The notes: a model not told the origin generated them from the sequence alone. A stretch of 64,000 nt of DNA from Chloroflexota bacterium (GCA_012729455.1 JAAYDC010000014.1:100692-164691); one strand, 5' to 3'; counted from the stretch's first letter, positions 9,569 to 62,470 are shown. Translations and numbers: made by a program.

Positions 9569-10546
9569 ATGAAGTTTTCGGCCAACATCAACACCTTTAA
9601 TGCCTGTGCCGACCGCTATGTGCTGAGCGGATACGGCGAACGCCTCGATTCAGACGCGCTGATCCGAGCCGCTACCCAGGTGCCCGATCTGACGGGCGTA
9701 GAGCTGGTGGGCATGTGGCACGTCAATGACAACAATGTCGAGCAACTGCGCCGCCAACTGGCCGATGTTAACCTGGCGGTTACCTGCATCACACCCGATA
9801 TCTGGGCTTCCAGCAAGTGGGGCTGGGGGTCATTTACGTCGCCTGACCCAGCCATCCGCGCGGATGCCATCCGTGAGGTGCAAAAATCGATGGGCTGGGC
9901 CAAGCAGATGAACTGCGATATCGTCGATCTGTGGTTTGGGCAGGATGGCTACGACTATCCCATGCAGGGCGACTACCAGACCGCATGGGATCGGATCATC
10001 GAGGGCACCATCGCCTGCGCCGAATATATGCCGGATATCAATCTGGTGATCGAGTACAAGCCCAAGGAACCGCGCACGCACTGTTATATCTCCACGGTCG
10101 GCAAGACGCTCTTGCTGATCGACAAGGTCAACAAGCCCAACGTGGGCGCCATGATCGACGTCGGCCACACTCTCCAAGCCTACGAGGATGCCGCCGAATC
10201 GGCCGCGCTGCTGGATTACTTTGGTAAAAAGCTGATGTACATGCACTTTAACGATAACTGGCGCCTGTGGGATGACGACATGACCGCCGGTTCGGTGCAC
10301 ACCATCGAGCTGCTGGAACTGCTCTACTGGCTCGACCACATCGGTTATGACGGCTGGTATGCGCTCGACATCTTCCCTTACCGCGAGGATGGCATCCGCG
10401 CCGCCACTGAGAGCATCAAGTGGATCCAGGGCCTCTACGGGCTGCTCGACAAGATCGGGCGCGATAATATCACCTCTGCTATTGAGCAGGGTGATGCTAT
10501 GCAGGTATCCAGCCTGGTAAGAACCGCTTTACTGGGCAATTCATAA
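9569..10546 (+). CDS. Xylose-isomerase-like TIM-barrel sugar (phosphate) isomerase/epimerase
   Basis: 325 aa. GAAGGAGG RBS. TIM-barrel sugar isomerase signatures (EYKPKEP, DVGH, HFNDN). Confidence 0.8.
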   Translation: MKFSANINTFNACADRYVLSGYGERLDSDALIRAATQVPDLTGVELVGMWHVNDNNVEQLRRQLADVNLAVTCITPDIWASSKWGWGSFTSPDPAIRADAIREVQKSMGWAKQMNCDIVDLWFGQDGYDYPMQGDYQTAWDRIIEGTIACAEYMPDINLVIEYKPKEPRTHCYISTVGKTLLLIDKVNKPNVGAMIDVGHTLQAYEDAAESAALLDYFGKKLMYMHFNDNWRLWDDDMTAGSVHTIELLELLYWLDHIGYDGWYALDIFPYREDGIRAATESIKWIQGLYGLLDKIGRDNITSAIEQGDAMQVSSLVRTALLGNS

Positions 10547-40798: not shown

Positions 40799-43700
40799 TT
40801 ATTTTCGTAAAGTCACGCGCACCTGGGCACCGCTATCCACCCGCGGCACACGGATAAACAGGATCCCCTGGCTGAACTGCCAAGCTCCGCTCGGATCCAT
40901 CCAGCCACCTGTGGTCAGGATTTCCTGGCCATTGATTAGCACGCTATCAGGACGGGCATCGAGCGGAGAAACCATCACCGTCGTGAACTCGCCCGGGATC
41001 TGCCCCAGAGCCAGATTGAGCACCTGACCTTCCATGCGAGCCGTCATGCCCGGCAACACCGAGCTGATGTGCAGCTTGCCCGCACCCAACGGCAGTATCT
41101 GGGTGAGCGCCTGCGCATGCGGGTGATCCTGTACCAACAACAGGCTCTGGTGCAAATAGGCTGGGATCAACCACCAGCTATATGCTTCTTCGCCGGTGAC
41201 GACGTCCCAGGCATCCGGATACATGCCCTCGAACTGCCCCTCGGTAGCCTGCATCTGGTAAGTGGCAATTGTAATGCCCTCTGCAAGTTTGCGCCAATCT
41301 ACAACTTTCGGCAAGCCCGCATTCTGTAGTTCGGTATCCAGGCTTTGCAGGCCGATGGCATAGTCGAGGCCGTTCCACATCACCGGTTTGCCGATCCACG
41401 GGTAACTATAGTTAGTGGCGCCAAACACGGGGATGGTGCCATAACTCATCAACTCTCTGTCGGGGGCGCTCCACATATAGATAAATGGTAACCCGGCGAG
41501 CGCCCAACGCTCGGCTGCCACCAGGTATTTGGTGTCCCCCGTCAGGCGGTAGCCCTCGACAAAGACCTGCGAGACCCAGGCGGAGGCCAGCAGGTCCGGC
41601 ACGTGCAACGGCAGCTCCCAGGTCTGCGCACCTTCGGGCCGCAGCGGCAGCGACATGAGGAAATCCAGCGCCTTGATGCTGGCATCTACCAGGTTTTTGT
41701 TGCCAGTGATGCGTGCCGAATAGATCACCTGCAGCGCATGGGTGGCCGTCCAGCCGCTCGAGGTATCGCCCAGCTCGCCAAAAGGCCTGCCAGTGCGATT
41801 TGATGGCGTAAAACTCCATGAGCCGTTATTCTGCTGAGCCTGCAAAAGCACCAGAGCGTTGATATAAGGTTTGGTCAAATCGGCGGTCGTATCGCCTCGC
41901 AGCATGGCCAGGGCATACTGATAGTACCACGGGGTCGGGCCGCCATTCGTGCCGATGGCATTGGTCGAGGCGCGTGCGACATCGCGCATCGCCTGGCCTT
42001 CAGCCGTTTCCGCCTGGTCGAGGCCAGCCAGCTCAAGGTGCAGCGCTACGGCGGCATTGGCGCCCGGCCCCCACGGATCCTGCAGGGCATAATGCCAGCC
42101 CTTGGACGGGGCATCATAGGTGCTCTTGAGGTAACCGACCAGGTCGTGCTGGTTCGCCGCCTCATAACCGCCGGCCAGCTCGGGTAGATCGGGCAGGGTG
42201 TGCTGTCGCAGCCAGACATCGAGAGGCGCCAACGGATCGGCAGCCGTGTCGGCAAACAGTTGGGCGTGCAACTGCAGCGTTTCGTCAGCCTTGAGCTCCA
42301 ACCCACCCGCCAGAATATCGCGGTTTTCGGGCAGGCCGGCGGTGGCGCCCGGTACGAACAGGCGCATCAGATGGTTTTCCTGCCCCTGCCAGCTGTTGGG
42401 TGAGGCAAACAGCACGGCCGGACGGTCATGCTCGGCATCCCACTTTTCGAGCGGATCCCAGATCAGGCCGGTGGTCATGCCGTCGACCGTCACCGCCATA
42501 AAGGGGATCGTGACCTTGTTGGGGTGCGGTACATAGCGCTGGGCAACGGAGGTGTCAAAGTAGTCGTCGCCCGAACTCTGCTCGGTGCCCAGCAGGTATT
42601 CCAACCCTGGGAAGAGGGCGCTGTCGCGGGTCGTGCCAAATGAGCCCTCGCCCGCCAAGTATTCAGGCCCCACCCAAGCCAGCAGCCTGGTTGTCTGCGA
42701 AGCCTTGAGCCGATAGCGCATATCGATCAGGTTCGAGTTGGGCTTGATGCTGAACGACGTCTCCGCCTGCCAAAGGGTGCCGTCGCTATCGGTAAAGGTA
42801 CTGGTAAAGGTGAGGTCGTTGCCGTTCACGGTGCCTTCGGCGGCATACAGCAGGATGCGCCGCTCGGCCTGTTCTTTGTCGAGGTAGGCGATCTGCCCCA
42901 GCGAGCTCATGCGCCCGGCGATGCGCCAGTTCGTGCCGTCGAACCACTCTACAGTGCCGACGCCATAGCCAAAGCTGTTCTTGGGAAAGCTGATGCGCAG
43001 GGTTTCGTTACCAATTGTCAGCGCAGTGCCGTTAGCGCTTTTTTCCAGCACCACCGCGGCTTGCTTGATAATCGTCTCGGCGGATTTCAGGTAATACTGA
43101 AAGACGCCTTCCGGACCCTGCAGCATCCAGGTGAGGGTCATGCTCTCGCCAGCCTGCAGAGCGTTGAGCGCGACCGAGGGGGTGCCTTCGGTGAGCTTTA
43201 ATTCCTGGTCAGCTGCCAGCGCGAGGCTCTCACCCTCCAGCACCTGATCGCCGACGTTGCGCACCACCGCGCGCACCTGGAAAGGTCGGTTCTCGGGCAA
43301 GATGGCTGCCTGAGTACTGAGCCATTCCACAGCCAGCTTGGCCGGTGCCGGGCCCATCAGTCGGATGTATTCGATGGCCAGTTCAGCGCCCTCATTGTTG
43401 GAAGGATCCAGTCGCACGCGCGTGATCTTGCCCGTCCAGTTGGCACTGTTCTTGACAGCCACCACATAGGTGTGCCAGGCGTTGTCAGCCTCGACAGCAA
43501 AGTGCATCGAACTGCCCTCGTTAAAGGCCTCGCCGTCGACTTCCCAAAAGATCTGCGCATCGGCACCCTTGCTGGAACGCATGCGCACCACAATATAGGG
43601 CGCAGTTTCGGCCTCGATGGCGATAGCCGGGCCGACCATGTACGGGTCGCCACCGGTCGAGCCGGTGACAATGCCCTCCTGGTTGGTCTCGAAAAGGCGC

Positions 43701-43939
43701 AAGTCGTGCGTGGCTACCCAGCCGAGTGCCTGGGCAGACTTGGCAAACTCCCAGCCATGGACGACCTCGGCCGAGAGCACCGGATCGTCATCGGGAAGCG
43801 GTTGGATTGCCTCACTGGTGTTAGCCACTTGGGGCGAGGGCGTATCAGGGCTCGCCGGGGCGGGGTTGGTGCAGCTCGCCAGGAGCATGCTCAGCGCCAG
43901 GACTATAAGCCAGAGTTTATCACTGATTTTAGTCTTCAT
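40799..43939 (-). CDS. Large secreted lipoprotein with an alpha/alpha-toroid-like C-terminal region; putative polysaccharide-active enzyme, function unknown
   Basis: Start at MKTKISDKLWLIVLALSMLLASCT (lipobox). 1046 aa. Helix-hairpin-rich region WYYQYALAMLRGD...NGSWSF. Confidence 0.55.
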   Translation of the reverse strand: MKTKISDKLWLIVLALSMLLASCTNPAPASPDTPSPQVANTSEAIQPLPDDDPVLSAEVVHGWEFAKSAQALGWVATHDLRLFETNQEGIVTGSTGGDPYMVGPAIAIEAETAPYIVVRMRSSKGADAQIFWEVDGEAFNEGSSMHFAVEADNAWHTYVVAVKNSANWTGKITRVRLDPSNNEGAELAIEYIRLMGPAPAKLAVEWLSTQAAILPENRPFQVRAVVRNVGDQVLEGESLALAADQELKLTEGTPSVALNALQAGESMTLTWMLQGPEGVFQYYLKSAETIIKQAAVVLEKSANGTALTIGNETLRISFPKNSFGYGVGTVEWFDGTNWRIAGRMSSLGQIAYLDKEQAERRILLYAAEGTVNGNDLTFTSTFTDSDGTLWQAETSFSIKPNSNLIDMRYRLKASQTTRLLAWVGPEYLAGEGSFGTTRDSALFPGLEYLLGTEQSSGDDYFDTSVAQRYVPHPNKVTIPFMAVTVDGMTTGLIWDPLEKWDAEHDRPAVLFASPNSWQGQENHLMRLFVPGATAGLPENRDILAGGLELKADETLQLHAQLFADTAADPLAPLDVWLRQHTLPDLPELAGGYEAANQHDLVGYLKSTYDAPSKGWHYALQDPWGPGANAAVALHLELAGLDQAETAEGQAMRDVARASTNAIGTNGGPTPWYYQYALAMLRGDTTADLTKPYINALVLLQAQQNNGSWSFTPSNRTGRPFGELGDTSSGWTATHALQVIYSARITGNKNLVDASIKALDFLMSLPLRPEGAQTWELPLHVPDLLASAWVSQVFVEGYRLTGDTKYLVAAERWALAGLPFIYMWSAPDRELMSYGTIPVFGATNYSYPWIGKPVMWNGLDYAIGLQSLDTELQNAGLPKVVDWRKLAEGITIATYQMQATEGQFEGMYPDAWDVVTGEEAYSWWLIPAYLHQSLLLVQDHPHAQALTQILPLGAGKLHISSVLPGMTARMEGQVLNLALGQIPGEFTTVMVSPLDARPDSVLINGQEILTTGGWMDPSGAWQFSQGILFIRVPRVDSGAQVRVTLRK

Positions 43940-43941
43940 TA

Positions 43942-45429
43942 TCACCGCCAAAGGAAATGGTAGGCAACACTTGGCGGACTGATCTCCACCGGCATGTTGC
44001 TGCCAGGTTTTATTTCGACGACTTGCACTTGCCAGCGACCAGAGAGGGGCGCGCGTTCGGCCTTGTAGAAACCGAGCGGCGGCCTCCAACTGGTAGCTTT
44101 GCTGTAAAAGACCTCGGGGGCTTGCTGGCTGGTCGAGCTCCACACACTCACGCGGTACCAGTGATCCTTCTGGAGTATCCCGACCGACATCCAGTTGAAC
44201 AGTACATCGGCATTCTCGCCCTCAAAAGCCGAACGGTTGACCGGCGCCAGCAGGACCGGGCGCCCATACACATAATCGGCTGACTTGGTCGCAGTCGGCC
44301 AGGGTGTGATCGTGGGGCGCGCCGGCTCGGGCGTGCTTTCTGCGGTGGGCTCGGGGGTGTCCTCAGCCGTCGGTGCGGGCATCTGCCCGGGAATTATCAG
44401 TTCCTGGCCAAGCTTCAGCTCGGCACCCACCGTCAGGTTGTTAGCGGCTGCCAACTCTTCGATGCTGATGCCAAATTTGTCGGCGATCAACTGCAGATAG
44501 TCGCCCGCCTGGGCGGTATAGATGATCTCACCGAGGATAGGCGTGGCAGCGGGTGTAGCAGATTGCTCGCCCTCGGGTACCGCCGTCGCAGTGGAGGCGA
44601 CTGTCACGTTGGGGATCGTCAGTTTCTGGCCTATCGACAATATCGAGTTCTTGGTGATGCCGTTGGCCTCGGCGATCGCCTCCCAGGTCACACCATATTG
44701 CGCGGCGATCGTATCGATGTTATCTCCGCTCACCACGATATGCTGGATATCAGCCAGCACAGTGGCTGCAGTCGGCTCTGGTGTGTCGTTCGGCGCTGCG
44801 GTCGGCTCAGGCGGCGGAGTCGGGATGATCAACACCTGGTCGGGTTTGAGCACGACATCGGCCGTCAGATCGTTAACCGCCAAGAGCTCCTTGACCGAAA
44901 TGCCAAACGATTCGGCGATCAGCTCAGGGTAGTCACCCGCCTGCACGGTATAACGGCGCGGTTCGGGCGCCGCGGTACTTGAGGTCGCCGTCGGGGTATT
45001 CTCAGCGGTAGGTTCGGGAACGGGGTCATCACGCGGGATGATCAGTTCCTGCCCGGGCGTTATCACGGCATCTTCGGTCAGGTTGTTGGCCGCCAACAGC
45101 TTTTCAAGCGAGATATCGAGCTTTTCAGAGATCAACCCCAAATAGTCGCCCGCCACCACGGTATAGGTAGCCGGCAGTGGTGTGGGTGGGATAGGTGTCT
45201 CGGTGGAGGTCGGTGTAGGGGCAGGGGTAGCCGTGGGAACACTCGTATTGGTGGGGCTGGGCGTAGCTGTCGCGGTGGACGCCTGTGTGGCTGTAGCAGC
45301 AGCCGGCGGCATCGCAGTTGGCGGTGTACTCTGGCAACCGACCAGCACGAGCAATGTCAGCCCCAGGCAGATCACCCGCCAGCGGCTAGGCCGGACGAGC
45401 CCCGCAACATATACAAGAACAGTGCTCAT
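43942..45429 (-). CDS. Secreted lipoprotein with four LysM peptidoglycan-binding repeats separated by Pro/Thr-rich linkers
   Basis: Start MSTVLVYVAG...LVGCQS. Four YTVxAGDYLxLIAxKFGIS...LLAANNL repeats. C-terminal unknown domain. Confidence 0.75.
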   Translation of the reverse strand: MSTVLVYVAGLVRPSRWRVICLGLTLLVLVGCQSTPPTAMPPAAATATQASTATATPSPTNTSVPTATPAPTPTSTETPIPPTPLPATYTVVAGDYLGLISEKLDISLEKLLAANNLTEDAVITPGQELIIPRDDPVPEPTAENTPTATSSTAAPEPRRYTVQAGDYPELIAESFGISVKELLAVNDLTADVVLKPDQVLIIPTPPPEPTAAPNDTPEPTAATVLADIQHIVVSGDNIDTIAAQYGVTWEAIAEANGITKNSILSIGQKLTIPNVTVASTATAVPEGEQSATPAATPILGEIIYTAQAGDYLQLIADKFGISIEELAAANNLTVGAELKLGQELIIPGQMPAPTAEDTPEPTAESTPEPARPTITPWPTATKSADYVYGRPVLLAPVNRSAFEGENADVLFNWMSVGILQKDHWYRVSVWSSTSQQAPEVFYSKATSWRPPLGFYKAERAPLSGRWQVQVVEIKPGSNMPVEISPPSVAYHFLWR

Positions 45430-45448
45430 ATCATCATCGTATAAGCAG

Positions 45449-46009
45449 TCAGTTAAGGTCAAGGTCAGCAGCAATACTCCGCAGCGCGATAATCACATGG
45501 GCAATATGGTCTTGCAGATCGATCCCCAGATCCTGAGCTCCCTGCTCGATATCCTGGCGATTGACCCCACGCGCAAAAGCCTTGTCTTTCCACTTTTTCT
45601 TGACGGACGATACCTCCAGCGCGTTGATGCTTTTATCGGGACGCACCATCGCGCAGGCGATCAAAAGGCCGGTCAGTTCGTCGACGGCGTAGAGGGCTTT
45701 ATCCATCAGGTGCAAGCGCGGCGCCGATTCATCGGTACCGTGGCTCTGCACCGCATAGATGATATCTTCCGGCCAACCGAGCTCCCTCAGCAGCGCCACA
45801 CCAGCCATCGGGTGTTCGTCGAGAGTCGGGTGCTCTTCAAAATCCACATCGTGGATCAGCCCGGTGATGCCCCAGCGCTCGACGGGTTCGTTAAAGTGGG
45901 CAGCGTAATGGCGCATGGCCGCTTCAACAGCCAGGGCATGTTTGAGCAGGCTAGGATTCTTGGTGTGCTGGGTCAACAGCTCCCAGGCGTCTGAACGCGT
46001 TGGTTCCAT
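45449..46009 (-). CDS. HD-domain metal-dependent phosphohydrolase
   Basis: 186 aa. H...HD motif GLIHDVD. Additional His/Asp ligands. Confidence 0.7.
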   Translation of the reverse strand: MEPTRSDAWELLTQHTKNPSLLKHALAVEAAMRHYAAHFNEPVERWGITGLIHDVDFEEHPTLDEHPMAGVALLRELGWPEDIIYAVQSHGTDESAPRLHLMDKALYAVDELTGLLIACAMVRPDKSINALEVSSVKKKWKDKAFARGVNRQDIEQGAQDLGIDLQDHIAHVIIALRSIAADLDLN

Positions 46010-55375: not shown

Positions 55376-55600
55376 ATGTCAGTCATTACCAAAGATATGA
55401 CCATCGGTGAGATCGTCAGTACTTATCCGGCTACGGTCAAGACCTTTTTTGCTCACGGCCTGATGTGCGTCGGCTGTGCGGCTGCCAGGTTCGAGAACCT
55501 CGAGCAGGGTGCCATGGCGCATGGCATCGATGTCGAAGCGCTTTTAAAGGATCTCAACCAAGTCGTGGCCAACGCGGCCACCGAGACGGTTACCAACTAG
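55376..55600 (+). CDS. DUF1858-type small redox protein (hybrid-cluster-protein-associated disulfide family)
   Basis: 74 aa. MTIGEIVSTYP...GLMCVGCAAA. Confidence 0.55.
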   Translation: MSVITKDMTIGEIVSTYPATVKTFFAHGLMCVGCAAARFENLEQGAMAHGIDVEALLKDLNQVVANAATETVTN

Positions 55601-55670
55601 CTTTTGGTATGGGGGGAGAACAGATAGCCACCTGGGAACCCGTGGCTATCTTTTTTTATGAGGCAAGCAC

Positions 55671-56348
55671 GTGAACGATAACAGCGATCGGGCGGCTCTG
55701 CTGAACTGGGTAGATGCCACTCTAACTGGTGCGTATGGCGAACCGCAGCTTAAGCCGCAGCAGGAACCGCTTGGCGAGCTGGTACAGACGATCCTCTCGC
55801 AAAACACTGCCGATATCAACACCGCACGCGCCTATGCCGAACTGCGCCGGCGCTTCCCGAGCTGGTATGACATGATGCACGCAAGTGTGGATGAGATTGC
55901 CGATGCTATCCGCATCGGCGGGCTGGCGCACATCAAGGCACCGCGCATCAAGGCCATCCTCGAGCAGCTCTATGCCGAGCGGGGCTCGCTCGACCTGTCT
56001 TACCTGGCTGATATGCCCGTCGACGAGGTGCGCAGGCACCTCACTCGTTTTCACGGAGTAGGCAACAAGACAGCTGCCTGCGTGCTGCTCTTTGCGCTGC
56101 ATATGCCCGCGTTGCCGGTCGATACACACGTGCTGCGAGTCAGCCAGCGTCTGGGGTTGGTAGCTCCCAAAGCCACTGCCGACCAGACCCAAGCCTGGCT
56201 GGAGGCAAAGCTGGACCCGGCGCGCTACTACCCCTTTCACCTCAACATGATCCACCACGGGCGGGTATGCTGCCTGGCGCGAAATCCGCGCTGCAGCAGC
56301 TGCCCTCTGGCGGCCCGCTGCCGATTCTTGTTTACATCCGGCACTTGA
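55671..56348 (+). CDS. nth: Endonuclease III-like HhH-GPD DNA glycosylase with [4Fe-4S] cluster
   Basis: HhH-GPD block. C-terminal CLARNPRCSSCPLAARC. Confidence 0.8.
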   Translation: MNDNSDRAALLNWVDATLTGAYGEPQLKPQQEPLGELVQTILSQNTADINTARAYAELRRRFPSWYDMMHASVDEIADAIRIGGLAHIKAPRIKAILEQLYAERGSLDLSYLADMPVDEVRRHLTRFHGVGNKTAACVLLFALHMPALPVDTHVLRVSQRLGLVAPKATADQTQAWLEAKLDPARYYPFHLNMIHHGRVCCLARNPRCSSCPLAARCRFLFTSGT

Positions 56349-56401
56349 TTCTTTATAATGCAGATGGAACGTTGCATCTATTTTCACGTATAGATTCGTG
56401 A

Positions 56402-56956
56402 GTGAGCAATAGCGCGCACCAAAGGAGGCACGACGCGATGAGCGGAGATCTGAACGAACGTATCGAGGAATCGCAGGGTAAAATCGAACGCCTGATTTCG
56501 GGGATCCCAGGCTACAAGGGTTACAAGCAAAAGGAGCAGCGCCGCGAAGCTGACAAGCTGCTGCGGTTGCACATTGCCCGCCAGTTTGATGAGCAACTGC
56601 TGCGCATGAACGCTATCACCCGCAAGCTCTCGTACCGCGGCAAGCTCTCGGATATCACCATGGCCGACCGTGCTGCCAACAAGCTGCAGCTCCTGATCGA
56701 CCGCATCAAGAACGCCTCGATGGGCTATTCTGGCCTGTTTGATGCCATCAAGGTGCGCGAAGAAGAGCTCGACAAGCTCTATAACTTTGACCTTGCTATG
56801 CTGGATGGCGTAAGCCGTGTTGCAGAGCTGATCGACCAGATCGAGCAGCACTATGCCAGCGAGCTGCCGATTGCCGAGCCGGTCGATCTCCTGATCGCCG
56901 AGCTCGAGGCGCAGAACGCTACCTTTAGCACCCGCCAAGACGTTATTCTGGCATAG
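56402..56956 (+). CDS. Hypothetical helical protein, partner of the downstream SPFH protein
   Basis: 184 aa. Predicted coiled-coil. No recognisable motif. 29-nt gap to the next gene. Confidence 0.45.
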   Translation: MSNSAHQRRHDAMSGDLNERIEESQGKIERLISGIPGYKGYKQKEQRREADKLLRLHIARQFDEQLLRMNAITRKLSYRGKLSDITMADRAANKLQLLIDRIKNASMGYSGLFDAIKVREEELDKLYNFDLAMLDGVSRVAELIDQIEQHYASELPIAEPVDLLIAELEAQNATFSTRQDVILA

Positions 56957-56985
56957 TTCGCATATCCCATTCACTGGAGGATCAC

Positions 56986-58074
56986 ATGGCTAGAATCTTT
57001 GATGTAATCGAAAGCCCCGACATCGCCGCAAACGAGCTGGTGAGGCGCTTCCCGGAATCCGGCTCGGGCGATTTCAGGCTTGGCTCGCAGCTGATCGTGC
57101 GCGAAGGCCAGGCAGCAGTATTCTTTCGCGATGGCAAGGCGTTGGATACCTTTGGCCCAGGCCGCCACACCATCACCACAGCCAACATCCCGCTCCTGAC
57201 GGGCCTGTTAAGCCTGGCATTTGGCGGCAACACGCCATTCACCGCCGAGGTTTACTTTGTCTCGGTACGCGACATGATCGACCAGCGCTGGGGCACGACT
57301 GAACCCATCACCCTGCCCGATTCGGTGCTGGGAATGGTGCGCATCCGCTCGTACGGCACCTATAGCTTTGCCGTTACCGAACCGCAGCGTTTTGTTTCGC
57401 AAGTGGTAGGCGCCCGCGGCTATTATTCCACTAAGGACGTTACTAACTACCTGCGCAGCATGATCATCAGCCGCCTCTCGAGCGTGCTGGGCGCCAACTT
57501 CTCTACCTTGCTGGATATGCCCAGCATGTTTGACGGCGTCTCGGCCGCCGGGCGTACCCGCATGCAGGAGGATTTCACCGCTATCGGCCTGACGCTCAAG
57601 CAGTTCTATATCGAATCCGTCAGCCCGACCGAAGAGACCAGCAAGGCGATCGACGAGCGCGCCGCGATGGGCGCCATCGGCGATATCGACAAGTATGTCA
57701 AGTTCAAGACCGCGCGCGGCATCGAAATAGCCGCCGGCACCGATACGGGCGCCTCGGGTGCCCAGATCGGCATGAGCCTGGCTGCCGGTATGACGGCCGG
57801 CCGCGCTGTGGCCGATTCGTTCGCCCAGGGCACAGCTGGCCAACCCGCACAGGGCGCTCCTGGGGTTGCCGGTGCAGCCGCAGCCGGTGCCGTTGCTGCC
57901 GGCGCAGCCGCCGCGGCAATCAAGTGCCCCAACTGCAATGCCGATAACCCGGCCGCGGCCAAGTTCTGCAACAGTTGCGGACAGCAGATCGGCGGAGCGC
58001 TGAAATGCTCAAACTGCGGGGTCGAAAACCCGGTAGGAAGCAAGTTCTGCAATAACTGCGGCAACAAATTCTGA
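56986..58074 (+). CDS. SPFH/band-7-domain protein (YdjI/COG4260-like) with a Gly/Ala-rich linker and two C-terminal zinc ribbons
   Basis: 362 aa. SPFH N-domain. CPNCNA..CNSCG and CSNCG..CNNCG. Confidence 0.7.
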
Positions 58075-58193
58075 GCGTACCTCAACACTCGGCAGGTCAG
58101 CCCTTGAACCTGCCGAGTTTGCTTTTCCCGCTTGTTTGCAGATCTCGTTTTCTAATGTATGATAGGGGAATAATCCATCCGAGTGAGAATGCT

Positions 58194-58646
58194 ATGGAAG
58201 TCATCCTGCTTAAAGAAGTCAAGCGTCTGGGGCAAGCCGGCGAAATCAAAAAGGTCGCGGATGGATTCGCGCGCAACTATTTAATTCCCCGTGGGCTGGC
58301 TGTACCTGCCAAGCAGGGCGCCCGCCAGGTCCTGGCAGACCAGACCAGGAGCGAACAACGCCAGGCTGATAATGAGTTGGCTGCCGCTAACGCCCTGGCA
58401 AAAAAACTCCAGGATGTGGTAGTGACCCTCAAAGCCAAAGTCGGTGAATCTGGCCGTTTGTACGGCTCTATCACCAGTGCAAATATCGCCACCGAACTGG
58501 CCGCCATCACCGGCGAGGAAATCGACAAGCGCAAAGTGCAGCTAGACGAGCCGATCAAAGAAGTCGGCAAGAGCGAGGTTACGATCAGGTTGCACAGCGA
58601 TGTCAAAGTCACGGTGCCAGTCGTCGTCGAGGGCGAGGTTGTCTGA
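58194..58646 (+). CDS. rplI: 50S ribosomal protein L9
   Basis: [36 protein letters not shown]... 150 aa. Confidence 0.85.
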
Positions 58647-58741: not shown

Positions 58742-60145
58742 ATGAAGCTACGATATCGGAGTTTGTTAGCACTCGTACTGGTCATCGTCCTGATCTTGAT
58801 GAGCAGTTGTACGGGAACCGGCGTGGAAATGACCGGCGGTGACGATGGCGCCAATCCGGAAGACCCCACCCCCATCCCGCCGATGCCCGCCGCGGAAAAG
58901 CCGACTTATACGGTGCAAAAGGGCTCGATTATCGACAGCCTCGAATTCACCGGCCGGGTTTCTCCAGCTCAGGAGCAATCCTACTATTTTAAGGCATCGG
59001 GACGCGTATTGCGCGTGATGGTTGAGCGTGGCGACGAGGTCGTCTCGGGCACGGTTTTGGCCGAACTCGAAAACGATGACCTGGTGCGTCAGCTTGACCA
59101 GGCCAAACTCGATCTACAAGCTGCCGAGATGCAGCTCGCTTCGGCACGTGCCGCGCGCGATTACAACATTGCGCGGGCTGCCATCAACCTGCGCATCAAC
59201 AAGCTGCAGCTTTCCAAACTGACCAGCGGCGCCAACGACATTGACGTGCAGCTGGCTACCGTTGGCGTACAGCGCGCCGAGGCCGCCTTGCGGCGTGCTC
59301 AGGCAGCCTATGACTTGCGTGCTCAGAAGCCTGGTGTCGAAGCCAGTTACGAGGCTCTGGCACTCGAACAGGCCACACTGGATGTGCAGACTGCCCAAAC
59401 CGCCCTGGATCGTGCCAAGAAAGCGCGTGATACCGCAGGTTATGATGTGGCCATCCTCGAGCAGCAGATCAAGGCAGCCGAACTCGAGTTGAGCCATTTA
59501 TCAAATAGCGACGATGTCACGCTGCAGGGTGCCGTCTCGCGGGCTTCGCTGGCTGTCGAACGCCTGCAGGCCTTTGTGGACGATACCCGGATCGTCAGCA
59601 CCATGGATGGCACGGTTACCTCCGTCAGCGCCGAAGCCGGCAAGGCGGTCGAGGCCTATACGGTAATGTTTGTCGTCTCCAACGCCTCTCAGATGGAGAT
59701 TCGCGCAGAGCCGTTGGCTACTCAGATGGAAAAGATGCAGGAGGGGCAGGAGGTCAAGATCACCCTCTCGCAGTACCCCGGCAAGGAGCTTACCGGCACG
59801 GTCGTCAAGTTGCCGTATCCATACGGCACCGGCGGCGGTGCTCCTTCTGAGACGGGCACCAGGACTGCTGAGCAGATCGACAAATCGACCCATATCGAGT
59901 TCATCCCCGGAGAACTGGAGCTAAAGCCGGGTGACCTCGTCAAGATCGTAGTTACCCTCGAAGAAAAAGACGATGTCCTGTGGCTGCCGCCGATCGCCAT
60001 CCGCACCTTCTCGGGGCGCAAGTTTGTGGTGATCAGTGAGGATGGCAACCAGCGCCGTGTCGATATCGTCACCGGTATCGAGACCACTGAACGCGTCGAG
60101 ATCAAAGAAGGCCTGCAAGAGGGTCAGGTTGTCATCGGGCAATAA
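58742..60145 (+). CDS. HlyD/MacA-family periplasmic adaptor (membrane fusion) protein
   Basis: Lipobox LILMSSCTG. Barrel-sandwich, coiled-coil and beta-barrel layout. Confidence 0.75.
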   Translation: MKLRYRSLLALVLVIVLILMSSCTGTGVEMTGGDDGANPEDPTPIPPMPAAEKPTYTVQKGSIIDSLEFTGRVSPAQEQSYYFKASGRVLRVMVERGDEVVSGTVLAELENDDLVRQLDQAKLDLQAAEMQLASARAARDYNIARAAINLRINKLQLSKLTSGANDIDVQLATVGVQRAEAALRRAQAAYDLRAQKPGVEASYEALALEQATLDVQTAQTALDRAKKARDTAGYDVAILEQQIKAAELELSHLSNSDDVTLQGAVSRASLAVERLQAFVDDTRIVSTMDGTVTSVSAEAGKAVEAYTVMFVVSNASQMEIRAEPLATQMEKMQEGQEVKITLSQYPGKELTGTVVKLPYPYGTGGGAPSETGTRTAEQIDKSTHIEFIPGELELKPGDLVKIVVTLEEKDDVLWLPPIAIRTFSGRKFVVISEDGNQRRVDIVTGIETTERVEIKEGLQEGQVVIGQ

Positions 60146-60193
60146 CGCGCACCGGATGCGCGGCCCGCATCCGGTTGATGGAGATACAGCGTA

Positions 60194-61456
60194 ATGGCAT
60201 CCAACGGACCGATGATCCTGTGTGATAACCTGGTCAAGATCTACAAAGTCCAGGATCTGGAAGTGGTCGCCCTGCAGGGGCTTGACCTGGTGATCGAACG
60301 CGGCGAGTTTATGGCCATCGTCGGGCCGAGCGGCAGCGGTAAATCGAGCCTGTTGAACATCTTGGGTGGGCTCGACCGCCCCTCGGCTGGCAAAGCTCTA
60401 GTCGATAACGTCGACCTGCTCAAGGCTTCTTCGATGGCGCTGACTGTTTACCGGCGCGAAAAGGTCGGCTTTGTGTGGCAGCAGCCTTCGCGTAACCTGA
60501 TCCCTTATCTTTCAGTGCGCGAAAACGTCGAGCTGCCCATGATCATTGCCGGCACGAGCTCCAAGGAGCGCCATGCCTGGAGCCAGGAGCTGCTGGAGAC
60601 CGTCGGCCTGTGGGAGCGCCGCAGCCACAACCTGCATCAGCTCTCGGGTGGTGAGCAGCAGCGCACCGCCATCGCGGTGGGGCTGGCAAACAAGCCAGTC
60701 CTGCTACTGGCGGATGAGCCCACCGGTGAAGTCGATAGCCTCACCGCGCAATCGATTATGGATACCTTTCGCCGGCTGAACTCGGCGTACAACCTCACCA
60801 TTGTGGTCGTCACCCACAACACCCAGGTCTCGGATCAGGTCGACCGCGTGGTGGCGATCCGTGACGGGCGCACCAGTACCGAGCGCGTGCGCCGCGTGCA
60901 AGACGTAACACCGGTGGCTGCCGTCGACGAAAACGGCGAGATCGACCCAGAGGCTGTCGCCGAACAGGTGGTGACCTATCACGAATATGTGGTGGTTGAC
61001 CAAGCCGGCCGCCTACAGGTGCCGCGCGACATGCTCGAACGCATGGGCATCACCGGGCGCGCCGAGCTGAGTATCGAAGAAGACCACATCCGCATCAAGC
61101 CTGCCCAGGCTCTGACAACCACCACGGCCCAGGCTGCGCATACGAGCGAGGCCACCGACGAATGGGGCAGCGAACCGCGTTCGCTCGACTGGAAGCTGCG
61201 CATCAGCGTTGCCAGCCGCGGCTTGCGCGGCCTGTTCAACAGCGGCAGAAAAAAGGATGACGCCACGGCCGACGAGATTCCTCAAGAAGAGGCGCTCGCC
61301 AGCGAGCTTGTCGACGAGGAGCCGAGCGCCAGCGACCCTGCTGCCGAAGGGGTGGTAACCGCAGAGAGTGCTGCGAAAGAGGCCGCAGCTGAAGAGACAA
61401 TTGAAGACTGGTCCAGGCCAAGCGACGAACAAGAGGACGGTCAGGAATCGTCATGA
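60194..61456 (+). CDS. ABC transporter ATP-binding protein (MacB/LolD-type NBD) with a ~190-aa C-terminal extension (AbrB/MazE-like segment plus acidic tail)
   Basis: GPSGSGKSS, LSGGEQQRTAIAVGL. Extension contains YVVVDQAGRLQVPRDMLERMGITGRAELSIEEDHIRIKP (swapped-hairpin-like) and then a D/E-rich tail. Confidence 0.8.
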   Translation: MASNGPMILCDNLVKIYKVQDLEVVALQGLDLVIERGEFMAIVGPSGSGKSSLLNILGGLDRPSAGKALVDNVDLLKASSMALTVYRREKVGFVWQQPSRNLIPYLSVRENVELPMIIAGTSSKERHAWSQELLETVGLWERRSHNLHQLSGGEQQRTAIAVGLANKPVLLLADEPTGEVDSLTAQSIMDTFRRLNSAYNLTIVVVTHNTQVSDQVDRVVAIRDGRTSTERVRRVQDVTPVAAVDENGEIDPEAVAEQVVTYHEYVVVDQAGRLQVPRDMLERMGITGRAELSIEEDHIRIKPAQALTTTTAQAAHTSEATDEWGSEPRSLDWKLRISVASRGLRGLFNSGRKKDDATADEIPQEEALASELVDEEPSASDPAAEGVVTAESAAKEAAAEETIEDWSRPSDEQEDGQESS

Positions 61457-62151
61457 CAAACAACACCGAAACCGTCATTAATGCGATCGATATCGTGCGC
61501 ACCTACAAGGTCGATAACCTCGAGGTGCACGCGCTGCGGGGCGTCAGTTTTTGCGTCAACACCGGCGAATTCATCGGCCTGATCGGCCGTTCCGGCTCTG
61601 GCAAAACCACTCTGTTAAACATCATCGGCGGGCTAGACCGCCCCACCTCGGGCGAAGTGTGGGTCTATGATAATGACATCACTCGCCTTTCGGATCGCCA
61701 CCTCACGGATTTTCGCCGTAATAAGGTGGGCTTTATCTTTCAGTCGTTTGCGCTCCTGCCGACTATGTCGGCCTTTGAAAACGTCGAGCTGCCCATGCGC
61801 ATGGTGGGTAAATCGCTCCGCGAACGGCGCCAGCGCGTGATGGAATGCCTCGATATGGTAGGCCTGACCAAGTGGGCCAAGCATCGCCCGCAGGAAATGT
61901 CCGGCGGCCAGCAGCAGCGCGTGGCAATCGCGCGCGCCCTGGTCAACCGCCCGGGGCTGATCCTGGCGGATGAGCCCACCGGTGAGCTGGATACCGCCAC
62001 GTCGCAGACTATCTTTGAGCTCTTCAAGAACATCACGCACCACGAGAACGTGGCCATCGTGATGACCTCGCACGACCCTGCGGCTGAGCAGTATATGACC
62101 TATACCTACCGCATGGCTGACGGGCGCATTACCAACGAGCGCACTGCCTAG
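61453..62151 (+). CDS. ABC transporter ATP-binding protein (LolD/MacB-type NBD)
   Basis: 232 aa. [28 protein letters not shown] overlap with the upstream NBD gene. Confidence 0.85.
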
Positions 62152-62169
62152 CTTGACAAGCACGCGGGG

Positions 62170-62470
62170 CTTGCCTATACTCGCGTCAATGGCTACGAAC
62201 GAGAGGGCTGACGGGTAAAACCTGCCAGGGAGAAAAGGCCGCAGACTGCAAGCCTTTTCAAGGGATAACCGTAAGCGTTCACTCGGGAGCCGACCGCTGA
62301 ACGAAACCTAGTAGGCGCGCCCGCCAGTCCGGCGTTAACGGACGTTCAGTCACCCGGCAACGCCGGACGCCGAATTGAGTGAGCCCGGATGGGCTAATGT
62401 GGGTGGTACCACGGAGACCGCACGTCGCATCTTCGTCCCAACGAGGATGCGGCGTTTTTATTTTCTCTCT
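62170..62470 (+). promoter_or_regulatory. T-box riboswitch leader of the pheST operon (Phe specifier)
   Basis: T-box sequence aatgtgggtggtaccacgg at 62396..62414. Terminator stem 62427..62451 (cgcatcttcg / cgaggatgcg) plus gcgtttttatttt. Candidate UUC specifier codon in gcgTTCActc at about 62278..62280. Confidence 0.7.

Follow-up and report, generated by a model that had tools for sequence, protein, structure and literature searches.

An ATP-binding cassette (ABC) operon that encodes an adaptor and two different ATPases and no permease raises the question of which membrane protein its products serve. Such an operon is found at positions 58742-62151 of a stretch of 64,000 nucleotides from a Chloroflexota bacterium (GCA_012729455.1, JAAYDC010000014.1:100692-164691). 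We analyzed the whole stretch, which we refer to as the window, and count positions from its first nucleotide. In our view the locus is probably one part of a split Type VII (MacB/YbbP-like) ABC operon whose permease gene is located at an unlinked site.

The permease-less locus and its relatives

Three consecutive genes are located on the plus strand: a membrane-fusion (periplasmic adaptor) protein of the HlyD/YknX type (58742-60145, 467 aa), an ATPase that we name A1 (60194-61456, 420 aa) and a second ATPase, A2 (61453-62151, 232 aa). A preliminary description made from the sequence alone had reported an adaptor and two different genes for proteins with only a nucleotide-binding domain (NBD), coupled by an ATGA overlap. 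The map of open reading frames (ORFs), the Pfam and NCBIfam matches and the sequence itself, in which the overlap of A1 stop and A2 start is legible ('...tcgtcATGAcaaac'), bear this out. The adaptor matches HlyD_D23 (8.6e-13), HlyD_3 (1.6e-10) and Biotin_lipoyl in Pfam, passes the NCBIfam model TIGR01730 (RND_mfp) with 96.7 bits against a cut-off of 94.9 and carries the precomputed annotations BSH_YknX and YknX_C. Its N-terminus is a hydrophobic signal/anchor segment with a lipobox-like ...LILMSSC. Lipoyl/barrel-sandwich domain, beta-barrel domain and N-terminal anchor, the parts of a membrane-fusion adaptor, are all present.

The NBD of A1 comprises residues 1-232 (60194-60889, plus strand) with Pfam ABC_tran at residues 27-177, and its motifs are canonical: Walker A GPSGSGKS, Q-loop, signature LSGGEQQR, Walker B and H-loop. 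A2 consists of an NBD only, also with canonical motifs (ABC_tran, 2.1e-37). The top NCBIfam models for both ATPases are LolD, MacB, DarD, YbbA, FtsE and DevA (E 1e-44 to 1e-67). The best is LolD (TIGR02211) with 206 bits for A1 and 225 for A2 at a cut-off of 307.75; YbbA gives 171-186 bits and DevA (TIGR02982) 150.6 for A1 and 185.6 for A2 against a cut-off of 295.8. Since neither ATPase reaches an equivalog cut-off, membership in the MacB/LolD/FtsE group is to be read at subfamily level only. The models for DevB, DevA, MacA and MacB all remain below cut-off on the window proteins, with DevB (TIGR02971) scoring 69.5 against 129 on the adaptor.

No FtsX-type permease was found among the ORFs of the 64-kb window, in which the ORFs with several transmembrane (TM) segments are BPD_transp_1/2 importer permeases. 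Likewise tblastn of three family permeases against the window gave no match at E<=0.01. The lack of a permease at this locus, also claimed in the preliminary description, is thereby confirmed. We considered a 1114-aa ORF on the minus strand (40799-44143) as a cryptic permease and rejected it: it has no Pfam match and one hydrophobic segment and is unlike the family permeases. The hydrophobic segment of this ORF is N-terminal, and the ORF adjoins a gene for a 510-aa protein with four LysM domains (43942-45474, minus strand), with which it may form an uncharacterized cell-wall-associated pair.

The exact A1 protein was found on ten public contigs. Six of them come from six different samples and match the window exactly in the A1 DNA and at the junction of adaptor and A1; five of these six show zero mismatches over 2.8-5.8 kb. 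One matching contig runs 5 kb beyond the window end (pheT, a radical-SAM gene and an EamA gene), and no permease is encoded there either. The identical junction in six independent assemblies, together with the same gene order in six other lineages, excludes an assembly error. The preliminary description had considered a permease gene immediately downstream in orthologues that had been lost here by such an error; orthologues indeed carry a permease gene, located between adaptor and A1, but its absence from the window is genuine.

We scanned one genome per species with a permease profile and found at least 525 related stretches, from which 80 loci of Anaerolineae and Caldilineae, including the cultured Anaerolinea thermolimosa, were kept. 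The order adaptor-permease-A1-A2 is present in 66 of these 80 loci. A1 is located directly 3' of the permease in 75, and a C-terminal extension of A1, described below, is recognizable in 72; in L046 and L047 A1 is present and the extension was not detected by tblastn. An FtsX permease encoded together with the ATPase, which is a Type VII feature, is thus found in the orthologous loci and not at the window locus. Loci L007 and L008 share the upstream synteny (DUF1858, HhH-GPD, a 172-aa ORF, SPFH/Band-7, rplI and adaptor) and have a 941-960-aa FtsX gene between adaptor and A1. Between the window and L007 the adaptors are 42%, the A1 proteins 63% and the A2 proteins 67% identical. A1 belongs to a large Chloroflexi family, the homologues listed being 64-79% identical and 346-377 aa long.

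The family permease is a single chain of about 960 aa with two FtsX stretches, ten predicted TM segments and loops of about 260-280 aa between TM1-2 and TM7-8. The permeases P0121, P0142 and P0413 from orthologous loci all show this topology of ten TM segments, duplicated FtsX and domains between TM1-2 and TM7-8. The best PDB sequence matches of the permease are LolC and LolF. Among loci with adequate flanks only three lack the ATPases: L035 (1832-6236) contains adaptor and permease with no ATPase within 10 kb downstream, and L083 (9989-12886) and L085 (8720-11629) contain orphan permeases of about 965 aa among conserved non-transporter neighbors. A metagenome-assembled genome (MAG) of the Anaerolineae, DATKTN01, holds two complete paralogous adaptor-permease-A1-A2 loci (L043 and L078), and one genome can therefore hold more than one copy of the system.

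In a second architecture the same A1/A2 pair, with the AbrB-like domain on A1, is accompanied by two consecutive large FtsX permeases (about 1100 and about 900-950 aa), each with about ten or more predicted hydrophobic segments, and by no adaptor (L011, 3806-11695; L123, 1859-9600; L146, 2300-10100; L150, 302-8240; L135, 2868-11014). Here the ATPases are separate or fused into one protein of 560-615 aa. This architecture is common in high-GC soil metagenome contigs (L123, L146, L150 and L135); the L011 locus is preceded by an extracytoplasmic function (ECF) sigma/anti-sigma pair.

Besides the window, the arrangement rplI-adaptor-A1-A2 without a permease was found in L013 (GCA_021372475.1), L176 (GCA_054641895.1), L012 (GCA_964407215.1), L009/L010 (GCA_050949385.1), L174 and L175. 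The 3' neighbors of these loci vary: pheST, an FGGY kinase, glycosyltransferases or YceD/L32. In a neighbor-joining tree of A1, which is rough and carries no support values, the permease-less loci fall into at least two separate places: basal permease-less clades include the window, and another clade is nested among permease-linked sequences. Among the permease-less loci the ratio of nonsynonymous to synonymous divergence (dN/dS) is 0.08-0.13 for A1, 0.05-0.10 for A2 and at most 0.23 for the adaptor, at saturated synonymous sites. Judged by these values all three genes are under purifying selection and are not decaying. The Q-loop/coupling-groove signature of A1, FVWQQPSRNLIPYL, is invariant in permease-linked and permease-less loci, its residues in the window protein being F93, W95, Q96, Q97, R100, N101, L102, P104, Y105 and L106. 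As these groove residues are kept, A1 still looks built for docking of a coupling helix.

The ATPase pair and the extension of A1

A1 and A2 are about 39-45% identical, and in essentially every locus one accompanies the other. Type VII systems typically have one kind of NBD, which acts as a homodimer; here we find two diverged and paired NBD genes. Both are joined naturally in at least seven fusion proteins of 558-614 aa (P0051, P0098, P0100, P0102, P0106, P0107 and P0114), and L135 adds a fused A1-A2 ORF. These natural fusions indicate that A1 pairs with A2 as a heterodimer of NBDs; structurally, such a motor makes sense on a permease that is a single, asymmetric chain. In the open-access literature searched we found nothing relevant on heterodimeric Type VII NBDs or on AbrB-like domains attached to ABC ATPases.

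The extension of A1 spans residues ~233-420 (~188 aa) and has four parts. Residues 233-258 (60890-60967, plus strand) form an acidic linker of net charge -5 that is poorly conserved and varies in length; its proportion of nonsynonymous differences (pN) is 0.34, compared with 0.07 in the NBD. This is followed by an AbrB/MazE/MraZ-like half-barrel at residues 259-306 (60968-61111, plus strand), which contains RLQVPRDMLERMGITGRAELSIEEDHIRIKP at residues 273-303 (61010-61102). The family motif of the half-barrel is YHEYVVxDxAGRLQxPRExLExLGIxxRAxVxLxExxIxIxP, with invariant residues D269, A271, G272, R273, Q275, P277 and R289. Residues 307-355 (61112-61258, plus strand) form a second conserved segment (AQAA..E..EWG....DWKLR...A.RGLRGLF), which is conserved in the unfused homologues and mostly predicted to be disordered (predicted local distance difference test, pLDDT, <50), with helices at 314-317 and 332-341. 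The last part, residues 356-420 together with the stop codon (61259-61456, plus strand), is a lineage-specific acidic tail with 22 D/E and 2 K/R among 65 residues.

This tail is missing from all 112 unfused homologues listed and present in all six independent assemblies of the window organism; it is a disordered appendage limited to the window lineage. An extension of about 190 aa with a long acidic tail had been described for A1, and both are indeed present, but the tail is no feature of the family, whose members are 346-377 aa long compared with 420 aa here.

The assignment of the half-barrel rests on several weak and mutually consistent results. When modeled alone with 19 homologues, AlphaFold2 predicted a beta-beta-alpha-beta-beta fold with a pLDDT of 81-86 (strands at ~267-268 and 274-275, helix at 278-283, strands at 289-294 and 299-303). 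The top Foldseek matches in the PDB are all AbrB, SpoVT, MazE, VapB or an AbrB-like archaeal protein (E 0.25-1), and the target-normalized TM-scores of about 0.46-0.50 are weak, as expected for a half-domain of 45 residues. PDB profile matches include 7d2n (AbrB/MazE/SpoVT, E 0.25) and MraZ. In the 19 homologues Pfam detects MraZ in 14 (best E 2.5e-4) and MazE_antitoxin in 10 (best E 2.3e-5). Taken together, model, structural matches and homologue matches consistently, if weakly, support the AbrB/MazE-like character proposed from the sequence, and such a half-barrel is probably the core of the A1 extension throughout the family: an AbrB-like domain is located C-terminal to the ABC NBD in every full-length representative checked. 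Two points count against the assignment: the half-barrel sequence of the window gives no Pfam match even at E<=10, and the scores that carry the assignment are low throughout (Foldseek E 0.25-1, best Pfam E 2e-5).

Two other kinships were considered and rejected. Matches to SRP54/FtsY GTPases rank higher in PDB and Pfam, but they span just the short DxAGRLQ/DTAGRL motif and are coincidental. A TOBE/ModC-like C-terminal domain was rejected as well: the TIGR02142 alignment reaches residue 320, but there is no TOBE Pfam match and the model is AbrB-like. Residues 265-285 of A1 (window ~60986-61048), VV(L/V)DxAGRLQ(I/V)P, mimic the SRP54/FtsY G3 box D-T-A-G-R-L, and the spurious SRP54 matches that result are a possible source of misannotation.

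Regarding function, the 44-aa core of the half-barrel has a mean net charge of -4 over 119 homologues and of -2 in the window protein, and with this acidic charge it does not offer a basic DNA-contacting surface. At what we take to be the DNA-contacting Arg-Arg positions of AbrB, the window protein has E-R and the family consensus E-E. Because the domain is acidic and the arginines are not conserved, we judge DNA binding by the half-barrel unlikely. It may instead be a protein-protein module, either for dimerization of two complexes in trans or for binding of another partner, and we suggest this with low confidence. The extension is found just as well in permease-linked loci and thus offers no explanation for the absence of the permease here.

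Possible fates of the permease

According to the explanation we favor, the genes of the locus would supply the adaptor and both motor subunits to a machine of Type VII (MacB/FtsX-type) that is conserved across Anaerolineae and Caldilineae. The canonical permease of this machine measures about 960 aa and comprises ten TM helices, two FtsX repeats and a pair of extracytoplasmic domains. A1 and A2 would presumably each dock on a different one of its two non-identical coupling helices; by analogy with related machines, mechanotransmission powered by the binding and hydrolysis of ATP would then reach the extracytoplasmic domains and the surrounding adaptor. In this genome, as in several further lineages, the rplI-adjacent locus would have been stripped of the permease gene, with adaptor, A1 and A2 left intact, and the permease would be encoded at an unlinked genomic site. 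The A1 half-barrel would most likely be a regulatory or oligomerization module, loosely comparable to the C-terminal domains of MalK, MetN and ModC.

Intact genes under selection, the conserved groove and the complementary splits in L035, L083 and L085 together make an unlinked permease the most economical explanation. The preliminary description had instead read the features of the locus as a sign of regulation or partner binding, and not of transport per se. The data do not support this: in 75 of the 80 loci A1, with its extension, and A2 lie directly 3' of the permease, so that the extension belongs to the regular equipment of a permease-coupled machine, and the Q-loop/groove signature of the window A1 is invariant.

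Several results weigh against an unlinked permease. An unlinked FtsX gene, for which a search of the genome had been proposed, was sought by profile, by homologues and by accessions, and none of these searches gave such a permease for the genomes with permease-less loci. Among the matches listed, comparison of the accessions in the homologue lists of A1 and of the permease gave canonical loci and no others, a homologue search seeded with an orphan permease likewise listed no unlinked permease for the permease-less genomes, and the permease candidates P0126 and P0232, when looked up, both turned out to be canonical loci. The permease-less assemblies JBMNFP, CAYOUT, JAJFUJ and JBTSJB are not among the 80 loci kept from the at least 525 related stretches, their presence in the scanned collection not being established. 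A scan of metagenomes with a profile of the A1 extension gave no close relatives of the window among the matches listed.

These results leave room for a true loss of the permease, with adaptor, A1 and A2 serving a different membrane partner, non-orthologous or paralogous, for example of the two-permease type (about 1100 and about 930 aa). We regard this as possible, if unlikely. It agrees with the absence of a recovered orphan canonical permease from the permease-less genomes and with the recurrence of the change, as the permease-less loci occupy at least two separate places in the A1 tree. A1/A2 pairs also occur with a different permease set, two large FtsX proteins and no adaptor, in L011, L123, L146, L150 and L135, and paralogous systems can share one genome (L043 and L078 stem from the same MAG). 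The permease searches, however, covered only the matches listed and were not exhaustive. Moreover, the groove residues of A1 are the same as in permease-linked orthologues and so point to a partner of the same kind, and the adaptor is orthologous to those encoded with the canonical permease. It appears very improbable that A1 and A2 act mainly as a soluble ATPase for regulation or DNA binding, via the AbrB-like domain and without any transmembrane partner. AbrB/MazE/MraZ domains are classically DNA-binding, the locus has no permease and IMG labels the homologue P0113 as ATPase/'bifunctional DNA-binding transcriptional regulator', but the domain is also present in 72 of the 80 permease-linked loci, it is acidic and, at the presumed positions of the AbrB Arg-Arg pair, has E-R here and E-E in the family consensus. 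The NBDs moreover belong to the MacB/LolD/FtsE subfamily with the Q-loop intact, and a co-transcribed adaptor with signal/anchor segment would be senseless without a membrane partner. We strongly disfavor, to the point of finding it hardly credible, a decaying pseudo-operon left by deletion of the permease. An essential component is gone from the locus, but none of the three ORFs is disrupted, dN/dS stays at 0.05-0.23 over a saturated synonymous divergence, the arrangement is kept in at least seven lineages and both ATGA coupling and catalytic motifs are retained. For the annotation of genomes this calls for caution: the permease-less ABC operon found here is most probably a recurrent operon split and not a soluble ABC protein.

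Within the split-operon explanation we also considered a further step, which we think is doubtful. The half-barrel would complete a swapped-hairpin barrel in trans, with the A1 of a second pump or with an AbrB-type protein, and adaptor, A1 and A2 would be a detachable power module for one or more unlinked permeases. If true, this would be the first Type VII machine with an asymmetric heterodimeric motor that is oligomerized or gated by a domain derived from transcription factors. Folding of a half-barrel usually requires two copies, and there is one per A1/A2 pair; a second was found neither in the window ORFs nor in the family permeases, which counts against the account of the domain in the explanation we favor.

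Flanking elements and known systems

Right after the adaptor stop codon lies a stem-loop (ACCGGATGCG-cggcc-CGCATCCGGT; 60152-60176, plus strand), behind which comes a GGAG ribosome-binding site. The stem-loop lacks a T-run, its predicted folding energy is -20.7 kcal/mol (z -2.0) and it occupies the site of the permease gene in relatives. Hairpins of different sequence (z -2.9 to -3.7) are found at the same place in L013 (~2640-2668), L176 (~2539-2567) and L009 (~9891-9923). The post-adaptor stem-loops of the permease-less loci have stems of 10-13 bp and no T-run. From sequence and predicted fold, the hairpin may be an intra-operon element that sets the ratio of adaptor to ATPase expression, or a scar of permease excision.

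The pump operon ends at 62151, where the promoter of the following transcription unit marks the boundary. This sigma-70-like promoter of the pheST leader, TTGACA-17-TATACT (62153-62181, plus strand), agrees with the consensus at 11 of 12 positions. The leader itself (62186-62465, plus strand) lies outside the pump and is a T-box with a UUC (Phe) specifier, a terminator hairpin and a T-run. RF00230 matches at 62186-62443 over the full-length model with 67 bits (E 2.1e-14); as the Rfam gathering score is 93, a default Rfam scan misses this T-box. The UUC specifier sits in the GAA-NNN-A position, the conserved GGGUGGUACC box is present and a 15-bp terminator at 62422-62455 is followed by TTTTTATTTT, and the leader is very likely genuine. 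The start of pheS is ATG 62482 (342 aa), with the same call in L001; the start of the longest ORF, GTG 62379, falls within the leader. T-box match, specifier and pheS start thus agree with the order of T-box leader and pheS after the ATPases given in the preliminary description.

On the 5' side of the pump a gene string is conserved across Anaerolineae: DUF1858, an HhH-GPD glycosylase, an ORF of 172-184 aa, SPFH/Band-7 and rplI (window 55376-58646; L007 2124-5372; L012 4302-7972). The 172-184-aa ORF (window 56402-56956) belongs to no Pfam family and is always paired with the SPFH gene, whose product (window 56986-58074) bears C-terminal double zinc ribbons.

The structurally characterized Type VII systems MacB, LolCDE, FtsEX and YbbAP use two copies of one ATPase. 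The same holds for BceAB. What is less expected in our analysis is the family as such: its NBDs are heterodimeric and sometimes fused, and one of the two bears an AbrB-like half-barrel. Were this confirmed, the family would lend itself naturally to asking if the two ATP sites, and likewise both halves of an FtsX permease, do different jobs in mechanotransmission. The location next to rplI in many Anaerolineae and the occurrence in hundreds of Anaerolineae and Caldilineae stretches suggest that the family may have a core function in the envelope of a phylum that has been little studied.

The system resembles MacAB, YknXYZ and DevBCA in that an HlyD/YknX-type adaptor is encoded beside MacB/DevA-like NBDs, in relatives in the order adaptor-permease-ATPase, and probably also in its mechanotransmission mechanism. 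In contrast, MacB, YknZ and DevC are homodimerizing FtsX units with 4 TM segments and one kind of NBD. In addition, no outer-membrane partner is evident here, and the host belongs to the Chloroflexi, which are generally regarded as monoderm. In E. coli, YbbP is one pseudo-symmetric chain that binds two YbbA via the coupling helices between TM2-3 and TM8-9 (PMC12646458). The family permease, with its ten predicted TM segments, two FtsX repeats and large extracytoplasmic domains between TM1-2 and TM7-8, has the same predicted topology as that of YbbAP(-TesA) (PMC12646458). Two NBDs on one pseudo-symmetric permease and NBDs of the same MacB/LolD-like subfamily are further common traits. YbbA, however, is encoded by a single gene and forms a homodimer, whereas here we find two diverged and sometimes fused NBD genes, an AbrB-like C-terminal domain on one NBD, an adaptor and, in the window, an operon without the permease gene. 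LolCDE provides the best NBD model (LolD) and the best PDB matches of the permease (LolC/LolF) and likewise has an asymmetric pair of transmembrane domains (LolC and LolE). It differs in the homodimeric LolD, in LolC and LolE being separate proteins with 4 TM segments and in the lack of an adaptor, and the LolD scores obtained here are under 307.75.

With AbrB, SpoVT, MazE and MraZ the A1 domain shares the predicted beta-beta-alpha-beta-beta half-barrel and the motif D-x-x-G-R-h-x-h-P...G-I, but here it is fused C-terminal to an ABC ATPase, present in a single copy per heterodimer and acidic. Finally, a small beta-rich domain behind the NBD that could serve dimer contacts or regulation is known from MalK, from MetN (C2/NIL) and from ModC (TOBE), a likeness that is a functional analogy only. 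Their folds differ, as no TOBE or NIL Pfam match was found, and these systems are importers. In them both subunits of a homodimer carry the C-terminal domain, whereas here it is found on one of two different subunits.

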